64,000 nt of DNA from Chrysomallon squamiferum (GCA_012295275.1 CM022670.1:26784001-26848000), one strand, 5' to 3'. Numbered from the stretch's first letter, positions 40,044-43,304 are shown. The notes: a model not told the origin generated them from the sequence alone. Program-made: numbers and translations.

Positions 40044-40209
40044 GATACGGACATCAGTTTGCAGACGTATTAATTTTATGTAATAATAATAAAATTATAA
40101 AATTAAGGTTGTAAATAAAAAGTCGCCGAGTATTCAAGGGGAAATCGATGAGGGTTATTGCACCACAAGTTTCTACTGCTTATATAGATTTATTTTTACT
40201 CTATCTATC
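40044..40209 (+). promoter_or_regulatory. Upstream promoter of ncRNA copy A (distal block, PSE-position motif, TATA)
   Basis: Blocks shared with the copy B upstream region: GATACGRACATCAGTTTGCWGAC, AAAGTC..GTATTC, TATTGCACCACA, TTATATAGATTTATTTTT. Confidence 0.55.
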
Positions 40210-40359
40210 GGGTGAGCCGCGGCGCGGTGGAACATTCACGTTAGAAATACGTGTAATCCTCTGAGCCTGAAGCAGACTGGATCGCCTCTCGTCGGGGAGA
40301 CTTCGGTCAATCCGATGGGAGACCGCTGTGCTAATTCGACACTCACCTTTTTTTTTTTT
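40210..40359 (+). ncRNA. Putative Pol III (type 3 promoter) structured small RNA gene, copy A, Y-RNA-like fold, family unassigned
   Basis: 138-nt GC-rich body GGGTGAG...CTCACC followed by T12. TATATA at 40181 (-29) and TATTGCACCACA at 40156-40167. About 90% identical to the inverted copy at 42977-43118, with pairing-preserving changes. Confidence 0.7.
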
Positions 40360-40566
40360 GATAATTATAATAATGTATTTGTAATTTACAAATCATTAAA
40401 TGTATAAACAAAATATCTGCTTACTTTAATGTACTTTCTAGTTTGTTTTTTACAAGAAAAACATTAAATAAAAAGGGTGTACATTATGGAATTTAATATT
40501 TTCACCTTGTTTCGTATAACTCATGCATATTATATATCATAAACACAGCCACAAATCGAAACAATT

Positions 40567-40680
40567 GAGAGAGAGAGGGAGAGAGAGAGAGAGAGAGAGA
40601 GAGAGAGAGAGAGAGAGAGAGAGAGAGAGAGAGAGAGAGAGAGAGAGAGAGAGAGAGAGAGAGAGAGAGAGAGAGAGAGA
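40567..40680. repeat. (GA)n microsatellite
   Basis: ~114 bp with one interruption. Confidence 0.97.
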
Positions 40681-42133
40681 TGATGGATATATCAGTCATG
40701 TTTTCTACACAATTTAATCAGCTGTTTTCATTACTTTCACAAGATCATCATAATTATTATTTTTTATTTTTTTTTGTTATAGCCAAGTTACAATTTACAT
40801 GAATATATTATATCACTATATTATAATTATCCTTCTCTTTACTGTGTTATATGTTTCGTATTTTCTGTAGGTATAAAGCAGAAATAAAAATGAAATTGTG
40901 TTTAGGTTTATATAATTATTACACACATTTTAATCTAGGGGAGATAACCAACATTTTCAGGTTAAAACTGCTGAATCATTTCATCAATGCTTATTCCCTG
41001 TATTTTTATTTTGTAAGGCTATACGCTTCTTGTTTCTAACATAATTACGTAAATAACGAAAATGTAGTGTGTATTTAAACAATTTCATTTGTTTGGATGG
41101 CGATTTATTATATATCTGTAGGGGACTGTAATAATCTTTGGTAATCAGTTCTGAAATGGTCGTGCAAACATTAATATTAAATTGTATACAGAATTCATGG
41201 AGGTCACATGTCTGGATCTATTGTTTCCAACCGGACGAGTCTCTGAGAAATAATATCTAATGACTTCTTTACCTATTTAAAAATAAATATGACAAAAGTG
41301 AAAACTATTTAACATCTTTTTAATTTACTAACAAACATGACTCAATGAAATGGTGAATTTAGTTATCACTTAAGAATTAAGTGATCCTATTGTCACTAAA
41401 TAATCTACCTGAACAAAATCAGAGCTGTCCTCTTCTTCCTTTCTTTAAAACAATATTTTATATCAATCATACGATAGACTCTGTCTTGGAAAATAATTTA
41501 TGTGGTATGTATGTATGTATATATGTATGTTTGTGTATATACTAATTCTTGAAAATAAAATAAAATAAAAGTAGGAATGTGATGAGAAATGAAGCAGTTA
41601 TACTTACCAAATCATCATCCTCCTATATGAAATTATATAATGATCCAGAACAATGAATGAATAAGCAAGACATGTTTGTTTCTTAGGTCCGGAGATGCGT
41701 AAATAACCTCATTTTCATGTCGTCATATTTTCTGACCCGAACATGAAGATTTGCCGCACCGTTTGGCACTGGTTATTACTTAACAGGAAATCAGTCAGTA
41801 GTCATCACGGAAAGAGTATTTAAATTACAGTGAAAACAAAAACAGACAAAAGTACTTATAACTCACCGAGATATCAATATACAAACATCTGGCAACAGCT
41901 AGTAATATAAACATATCCATGTCTAATACGCTTAAAGCTGATAATAATAATAATAATAATAATAATAATAATAATAATAAATAATAATAAAAATAATAAT
42001 AATAATAAAAATAATAATAATTAAACAAAAAAATGAAGAAAAAGAAGAAATTGAAACTATTTTAGTCGACAATTAGACAGGCGGTCAATGGTAATTTTAG
42101 ATTTGTTTTTGTTGATGATCCATTTGCATATAT

Positions 42134-42420
42134 TATGGCCGTAACTACACTGAGGCAAATGAGGTAAATGCCTCATACTGAAATTTTTATTTTTTAATTA
42201 TTATTATTATTTTTTTTTATATACAAAGATTAATTTTAAAAATATAAAATATATATTATTCCGATAGAAACGATATCCACTGAATAAATGTGTTTATGTC
42301 TACGGTTACCGTTTGAAGTCTACCGACATCGTTGCGATAAAAAAAAAAAAAATAAAACATCACTCACTTCAAAGACATCAGTTTTTGCCTCATTTCAAAA
42401 AGAGTTTAGTTACTTCCATG
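42134..42420. mobile_element. Degenerate non-autonomous DNA transposon (MITE-like)
   Basis: Imperfect terminal inverted repeats TATGGCCGTAACTA / reverse complement CATGGAAGTAACTA, with subterminal TGAGGCAAA / TTTGCCTCA. No clean TSD. Confidence 0.4.
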
Positions 42421-42584
42421 TATAGATAGATAGACATATATACATACATACACACATTACTGGTATCTCTCACTGTTGCTTTAGATAAGGTCATGGTGTA
42501 TGTTTGGCTGTCTATGGGAAGGTGCATTCACAAACAGATTCATACTAATCAATAAGATTAACTCCCGTATAACAGATCAGCCGG

Positions 42585-42671
42585 CTCTCTCTCTCTCTCT
42601 CTCTCTCTCTCTCTCTCTCTCTCTCTCTCTCTCACTCACACACACACAGAGACACACACACACACACACAC
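42585..42671. repeat. (CT)n(CA)n compound microsatellite
   Basis: Visible directly. Confidence 0.95.
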
Positions 42672-42882
42672 GTTCATTACAATTACATAATATAGTTGTC
42701 ATTTTATGTATTGTATTGTACTGGCGTTTTTTGTTTTTGAAATTGAACACTCCAAATATAAACGTTAAATATTAAATATAACAAGAATAAAACGAGTTAT
42801 TATTAATTTAAAAAAAGAAGAAAAAAGTTAATGAATTAAAATTAAAATTAAAAAAAAAATTTAAAAGAGAAAGAAAGGAAAA

Positions 42883-42953
42883 AGAGAGAGAGAGAGAGAG
42901 AGAGAGAGAGAGAGAGAGAGAGAGAGAGAGAGAGAGAGAGAGAGAGAGAGAGA
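42883..42953. repeat. (GA)n microsatellite
   Basis: Visible directly; lies just beyond the terminator of ncRNA copy B. Confidence 0.95.
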
Positions 42954-42966
42954 AGAAAAAAAAAAG

Positions 42967-43118
42967 AAAAAAAAAAGGGTGAGTGTCGAATTAGCACAGC
43001 GGTCTCCCGACCGGATTGACCGAGGTCTCCCCGACGAGAGGCGATCCATCTGCTTCAGGCTCAGAGGATTACACGCTTTTAGCAAGCGTGAATGGTTCCA
43101 CTGCGCCGCGGCTCACCC
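42967..43118 (-). ncRNA. Putative Pol III (type 3 promoter) structured small RNA gene, copy B
   Basis: 142-nt body GGGTGAG...CTCACCC followed by T10. TATATA starts at 43147 (-29) and TATTGCACCACA is at 43171-43160. Distal block 43304-43282 matches 40044-40066 at 21/23 positions. Confidence 0.7.
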
Positions 43119-43304
43119 GGTATATAATACAAAAATAAATCTATATAAACAACTTACTGTGTGGTGCAATAGCTTTTTCCCGAAGCATTCTGAATTATCG
43201 ACAGTTTCCGCTGGAATACCACGTGACTTTTATTTATAAAACTAATTTTGTAATATTTTTATTATTATATATAATTATTATGTCAGCAAACTGATGTTCG
43301 TATC
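43119..43304 (-). promoter_or_regulatory. Upstream promoter of ncRNA copy B
   Basis: Same blocks in the same order as copy A. TATA spacing to the body is identical and PSE-like spacing differs by 1 nt. Confidence 0.55.

Follow-up and report, generated by a model that had tools for sequence, protein, structure and literature searches.

Convergent candidate genes for a low-copy, type-3 Pol III small RNA with vault- and Y-RNA-like ends in Chrysomallon squamiferum

A stretch of 64,000 nucleotides (nt) of Chrysomallon squamiferum DNA (GCA_012295275.1 CM022670.1:26784001–26848000), which we analysed as a whole and refer to as the window, contains two convergent GC-rich units of about 140 nt, each preceded by promoter-like blocks and followed by a run of T. 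Judged from their sequence, these units are likely to belong to a low-copy family of candidate small RNA genes of the type-3 class of RNA polymerase III (Pol III), and the ends of the predicted RNA most likely place it with the vault and Y RNAs, two classes described as partners of TROVE-domain proteins. Since both classes bind such proteins, we take the vault-like and the Y-like reading jointly, and together they are probable. Tentatively, with chances a little short of even, we favour a vault-like mode of action by analogy, in which the RNA would be bound by the TROVE protein TEP1.

The gene pair and its upstream blocks

Copy 1 occupies 40210–40347 (plus strand), copy 2 43118–42977 (minus strand); they point towards each other across 2,630 nt of AT-rich, microsatellite-rich DNA and form an inverted duplication of ~330 base pairs (bp). 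Their bodies agree in 130 of 143 alignment columns (91%), have a GC content of 56–60% (31% in the window) and contain no internal T-run, not even T3, before they end in 12 T (copy 1) or 10 T (copy 2). A preliminary description of this DNA, made by eye, had reported two inverted GC-rich units of ~140 nt placed 2.6 kb apart, roughly 90% identical, free of internal T4 and ending in 10–12 T, all of which is confirmed by these counts. It had also placed a GGG start 29 nt past the first base of TATATA and a shared 12-mer at −54/−53, and had noted that likeness ends at the T-run and persists upstream in blocks; the position counts and region identities given below agree. The elements of the pair, including a candidate proximal sequence element (PSE), are as follows; the U6 gene L124 and the third variant are described further below.

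40210–40347, plus strand: RNA body of copy 1, 138 nt ahead of the T-run; predicted fold, no Rfam match
42977–43118, minus strand: RNA body of copy 2, 142 nt ahead of the T-run; predicted fold, no meaningful Rfam match
40348–40359, plus strand: predicted T12 terminator of copy 1
42967–42976, minus strand: predicted T10 terminator of copy 2
40156–40167, plus strand: PSE-like 12-mer of copy 1, equal in copy 2; its core GCACCACA is found at −52 of the U6 gene L124
43160–43171, minus strand: PSE-like 12-mer of copy 2; no other letter is listed for the third variant at 43153–43183
40181–40186, plus strand: putative TATA box of copy 1 (−29)
43142–43147, minus strand: putative TATA box of copy 2 (−29)
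40044–40066, plus strand: shared upstream block of copy 1 (−166 to −144), a candidate distal element
43282–43304, minus strand: upstream block of copy 2 that matches the one of copy 1 at 21 of 23 letters

The start site was inferred from the TATA spacing and the terminal helix of the predicted RNA. With this numbering the first base of TATATA falls at −29 in each copy, inside the range of ~21–30 nt upstream that is characteristic of type-3 Pol III genes, and the 12-mer TATTGCACCACA has only two sites in the window, 40156 (plus) and 43171 (minus), corresponding to −54 and −53. Identity between the copies is distributed unevenly: it is complete (1.0) over the 12-mer and exceeds the shuffle maximum over −30 to −1 (0.80, maximum 0.78) and over −100 to −175 (0.73, maximum 0.62). 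It amounts to 0.46 in the spacer between 12-mer and TATA box, 0.51 over −55 to −100, 0.52 over −175 to −300 and 0.39, the shuffle level, over the 100 nt downstream. The 23-nt block found ~150–185 nt upstream of both copies is seemingly missing from the third variant.

The same arrangement was found upstream of an unrelated gene. A motif search found 20 U6 loci (L121–L140) in prokaryote genome bins, all of which Rfam scores as U6. One of them, L124, is an animal-type U6 gene (117.9 bits), although its species may not be the host's, and carries GCACCACA at −52 and TATATA at −28, compared with −50/−49 and −29 here. The L124 gene and the units thus have in common GCACCACA near −50, TATATA near −29 and a T-run terminator, whereas the RNA bodies are unrelated. 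Shuffling of the L124 upstream region yields the motif in that range in 19 of 200,000 trials; the combination of GCACCACA and TATATA occurs in one of the 20 loci, which is still unlikely by chance given that 20 were examined. This placement upstream of an unrelated U6 gene argues for reading the blocks of the units as a type-3 Pol III promoter. The U6 motif was not found in viral contigs (0 matches). Several of the 20 loci adjoin tRNA, U2 or U4 genes, which points to eukaryote contamination of those bins. A lone TGCACCAC at 14938 (minus strand of the window) was discarded, as it has neither a TATA box at the proper distance nor a GC-rich body. Snail and oyster RNase P genes are described as carrying typical Pol III signals (PMC4287351).

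Copy number, third variant and predicted fold

Copy number was estimated from contigs of public DNA runs matched at 80% likeness. Seven of the ten listed runs contain the stretch, all of them from one organism (A) and from three studies; runs X9 and X10 derive from one sample of another organism (B), in which no contig lay on the body at 80%, a gap that proves nothing. Three contig variants cover the body at similar depth in X6 (46.5, 46 and 45.6), in X7 (55, 64.2 and 60.8, with the unique 3′ flank at 58, about equal to each) and in X5 (10.8, 12.7 and 13.4), and the body is represented by at least two variants in X4 and at least one in X1. Depth is not equal to copy number and contigs lose rare variants; 'about three' here means variants of at least 80% likeness counted in contigs, not across a whole genome. 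Hundreds of similar copies are excluded.

Likeness of the third variant to copy 2 is confined to the body and the sequence up to −65, ending at 43183, and no change is listed across the 12-mer. Since the likeness stops just above the PSE block, the conserved unit comprises promoter and gene. One letter of its TATA box (on 43145) is changed in X5 and X7, which may weaken the box. In X1, X4, X5 and X6 the contig of the third variant (on 40249–40345) ends where it is identical to copy 1; in X7 it continues past that point with nine more differences. Gene conversion or a difference between populations possibly accounts for this disparity.

Both bodies are predicted to fold stably. Copy 1 reaches −55.5 kcal/mol (z −3.25; one of 200 shuffles as good) and copy 2 −65.0 kcal/mol (z −4.16; none of 200), compared with z values of −1.86 and −2.97 for the opposite strands. 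The predicted structure consists of a 7-bp terminal helix, an asymmetric internal loop, a 10-bp inner helix, nine of whose pairs have a probability of at least 0.96, and three inner hairpins. The last of these (40299–40308) is capped in copy 1 by a C-UUCG-G tetraloop, one loop letter of which differs in copy 2. Two elements of the inner helix matter for the comparisons below.

40220–40230, plus strand: box-A-like 5′ strand of the inner helix (+11 to +21), predicted to pair with 40323–40332
40319–40332, plus strand: vault-like 3′ junction GAGACC and 3′ strand of the inner helix; the box-B core before it is degenerate

Substitutions tend to preserve this fold. Of the 46 pairs, one differs between copies 1 and 2 on both sides and three on one side, and none is broken. 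The 13 substitutions of the third variant in X7 alter two pairs on both sides and three on one side with the pair kept, and break two pairs near the tip of the last hairpin; four fall on unpaired bases. Random placement of the X7 substitutions does as well in 54 of 100,000 permutations, a figure that applies to one contig from one run. The earlier proposal that these are genes under selection is supported by these fold-keeping substitutions.

Relation to vault, Y and other small RNAs

Family searches gave no assignment. Rfam returned no match in the whole window at the gathering score, and at E ≤ 10, also on 166-nt stretches of each body, yielded only microsatellite-driven or chance matches; the Y_RNA and stem-bulge RNA (sbRNA) models matched neither copy, and ARAGORN found no tRNA genes. 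The Rfam check of both bodies that the preliminary description had proposed thus produced no family, and its statement that the units are not U6, U6atac, 7SK, RNase P/MRP or tRNA stands. Inspection by eye for 7SK motifs and a telomerase template revealed one GATC and no template. A likeness to the 7SL Alu domain was set aside because box A accounts for it. A model built from the pair matches only the two copies within the 64 kb. Pattern scans were negative in viral contigs, metagenomes (strict pattern) and prokaryote genomes (0 each). A loose vault-type pattern hit at least 120 loci, mostly GC-rich, which look like chance matches in bacterial genes and were dropped; model R1 scored none of the 99 loci tested among them.

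The case for a vault-like RNA comes from the ends of the molecule. Human vtRNA1-1, 1-2 and 1-3 are described as having a GGG start, a 7-bp terminal helix, an internal loop and a box-A helix extending to +21, which is closed by the strand right after GAGACC (PMC10087102). The units share this GGG start, terminal helix, internal loop and box-A helix to +21 with the vault RNAs (Rfam RF00006), and also the GAGACC 3′ junction, a variable middle, an oligo-U end and the occurrence as a small paralog cluster. The window copies read GAGACC at this junction, the third variant of X7 GAAACC (compared with the human RNAs by eye); over its first 21 nt copy 2 agrees with vtRNA1-1 in 12 positions, ungapped, again by eye. 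A box-A motif at +9 to +15 arises in 5–6 of 20,000 shuffles and the 3′ motif, a pattern fitted post hoc, in none of 20,000. Rat vault RNA is given as 141–144 nt, equal in length to the units, and a trypanosome vault RNA was recognised, according to a review, from short end stretches that form a bulged terminal helix.

Promoters of this type are served by SNAPc, TBP–BRF2 and Pol III, and La binds oligo-U ends. From this established biology, SNAPc would bind the −54 block and TBP–BRF2 the TATA box; Pol III would start at G+1 and stop in the T-run, releasing an RNA of 139–143 nt whose 3′ oligo-U would be bound by La. By likeness alone, TEP1 would then bind the paired ends, stabilize the RNA and load part of it into vault particles. 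We speculate that the external promoter relieves box B of its promoter role, so that only the junction letters GARACC would be retained.

Several observations weigh against a vault RNA. The Rfam Vault model has no match at E ≤ 10 for either copy (166-nt stretches), and no homolog outside the species was found in the viral, metagenome and prokaryote collections or in organism B. The box-B core ahead of GAGACC is replaced in all three variants, leaving no intact box B, and according to reviews it is boxes A and B that are conserved in vault RNA genes. The 3′ pattern was fitted after both sequences had been viewed and follows in part from box-A pairing. Mouse vault RNA is reported to bind TEP1 better with a single-stranded central region (PMC7058938), whereas the middle is here predicted to form three stable hairpins. 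The units have a full PSE and TATA promoter in place of the type-2 hybrid of vault RNA genes, and their internal loop is longer on its 3′ side. Moreover, a pure type-3 promoter is described as the Y RNA gene type, and the 5′ strand agrees with human Y3 in 14 of 20 columns with one gap, compared with 11 of 20 for vtRNA1-1 (by eye; table in PMC1948019). Because an intact box B is missing, we describe the RNA as working like a vault RNA and do not file it as a member of that family. A box B with one mismatch at +125 to +133 was dropped as a candidate, as ~60% of shuffles have one somewhere in the body.

A mollusc Y RNA (stem-bulge RNA), in which Ro60 would bind the terminal helix and the RNA would gate access of misfolded RNAs to Ro60, draws on the promoter and the Y3 comparison and on further parallels. 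Y RNA genes occur in small clusters, as here. The predicted fold is similar in shape to that of Y RNAs and of nematode and insect sbRNAs in its paired ends and in an unpaired C at +8 that faces three unpaired bases. The partner of GUG at +18 to +20 is CGC in the window copies but CAC in the X7 contig of the third variant (compare the GUG–CAC motif). La, too, is described as binding Y RNA. We nonetheless consider this reading unlikely, since the pairing of Y RNAs near the bulged C (GGUCCGA with UUGAC, from primers) does not occur in the predicted fold, the probability is only 0.57–0.59 for the two pairs above the bulge, the UUAUC loop motif and any pyrimidine-rich open loop are absent, the length of 138–142 nt falls outside the 100 ± 20 nt of Y RNAs, and Rfam gives no Y_RNA or sbRNA match. 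The combination of a Y-type promoter and 5′ strand with a vault-type 3′ junction might also mark the RNA as a living intermediate between the vault and Y classes, or as the first mollusc partner of Ro60, an idea that we rate as somewhat unlikely. Failure of vault and Y membership at a defining feature each, together with the absence of a family match, would suit an undescribed Pol III RNA class of some gastropods, whose function would reside in the three inner hairpins and whose vault/Y likeness would reflect only a shared box-A-like stretch. The inner hairpins are indeed conserved with compensating changes, and homologs were found neither in organism B at 80% nor in the scanned collections. 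A new class is nevertheless decidedly doubtful: the match to vault RNA ends in both position and topology is hard to reach by chance, and lophotrochozoans are expected to have vault and Y RNAs, which are described as prone to escape homology search.

Two further explanations are very improbable. A U4-like RNA lacking an Sm site could pair with U6 and act as its chaperone or decoy: GCGCAGTGG at +13 to +21 of copy 2 equals a 5′ part of human U4, and 40325–40336 is a perfect 12-bp complement of U6 49–60, which 5 and 8 of 300 shuffles reach, a weak result once the number of ideas tried is allowed for. The whole-molecule duplex energy with U6 does not stand out (equalled by 17 and 21 of 200 shuffles), although this test is weak, as control U4 also fails it (13 and 20 of 200). 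On co-folding, copy 2 leaves U6 unbound whereas control U4 forms both stems, and the U4-like and U6-complementary stretches are both locked in the inner helix (probability at least 0.96). The U4 alignment is not above shuffles (105 of 300), the U4 and U6 matches are not independent and were singled out after several comparisons, and there is no internal U-run and hence no Sm site. The units could, at comparably slight probability, be a short interspersed element (SINE), a miniature inverted-repeat transposable element (MITE) or a dead duplicated fragment that yields no functional RNA, as the high GC content, box-A-like motif and T tail of the units and their inverted ~330-bp duplication would suggest. 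The preliminary description had argued against SINE copies and named hundreds of dispersed copies with unrelated flanks as the observation that would speak for them. Its argument is borne out: there are three contig variants, the pair-built model finds just the two copies in 64 kb, the external promoter blocks are conserved and common to the variants, and substitutions keep the fold.

Should the RNA work like a vault RNA, its novelty would be limited by earlier reports. Vault RNA homologs have been described in two lophotrochozoan lineages, and vault and Y RNAs are said to tend to escape homology search (PMC2770079). Literature searches, in which general mollusc papers partly crowded out the rest, found no paper about a vault or Y RNA from a mollusc. 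Since the proteins of vault and Y RNAs are described as widespread in animals, molluscs are expected to have these RNAs, yet homology search tends to miss them and Rfam is blind to the units described here. The three-copy gene offers a candidate mollusc PSE for promoter-led searches and a starting point for a new family model, and whether TEP1 or Ro60 is the partner bears on the relation between the two RNA classes. If the RNA were an intermediate, it would support a common origin of both classes of TROVE-protein RNAs and could seed a promoter-based search for the missing Y and vault RNAs of molluscs and annelids; if it is the same as the reported lophotrochozoan vault RNA, the result is a gain in annotation, with an unusual promoter, and not a discovery.

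Neighbouring genes

The pair is flanked by a PLK-type kinase gene (minus strand) on one side and SLC35A3 (plus strand) on the other, each with its 5′ end towards the pair, and exons found on both sides bear out the location given in the preliminary description. No protein gene was detected between 34 and 50.5 kb by Pfam searches of 15, 143 and 123 open frames, which were picked by GC and complexity filters that may miss short exons. On the kinase side, the exon at 7556–7729 (minus) matches Pfam Pkinase with E 0.006, under the Pfam cut-off, and no additional PLK kinase exon was found in the window. The likely first coding exon of the PLK-type gene (33767–33994, minus) ends in RGRLLGK and is followed by what seems to be a 26-kb intron and then by the GGFA exon. 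SLC35A3 has seven exons at 50597–54664 (plus), and the top of nine matches to its first exon is a Gigantopelta aegis protein (71%).

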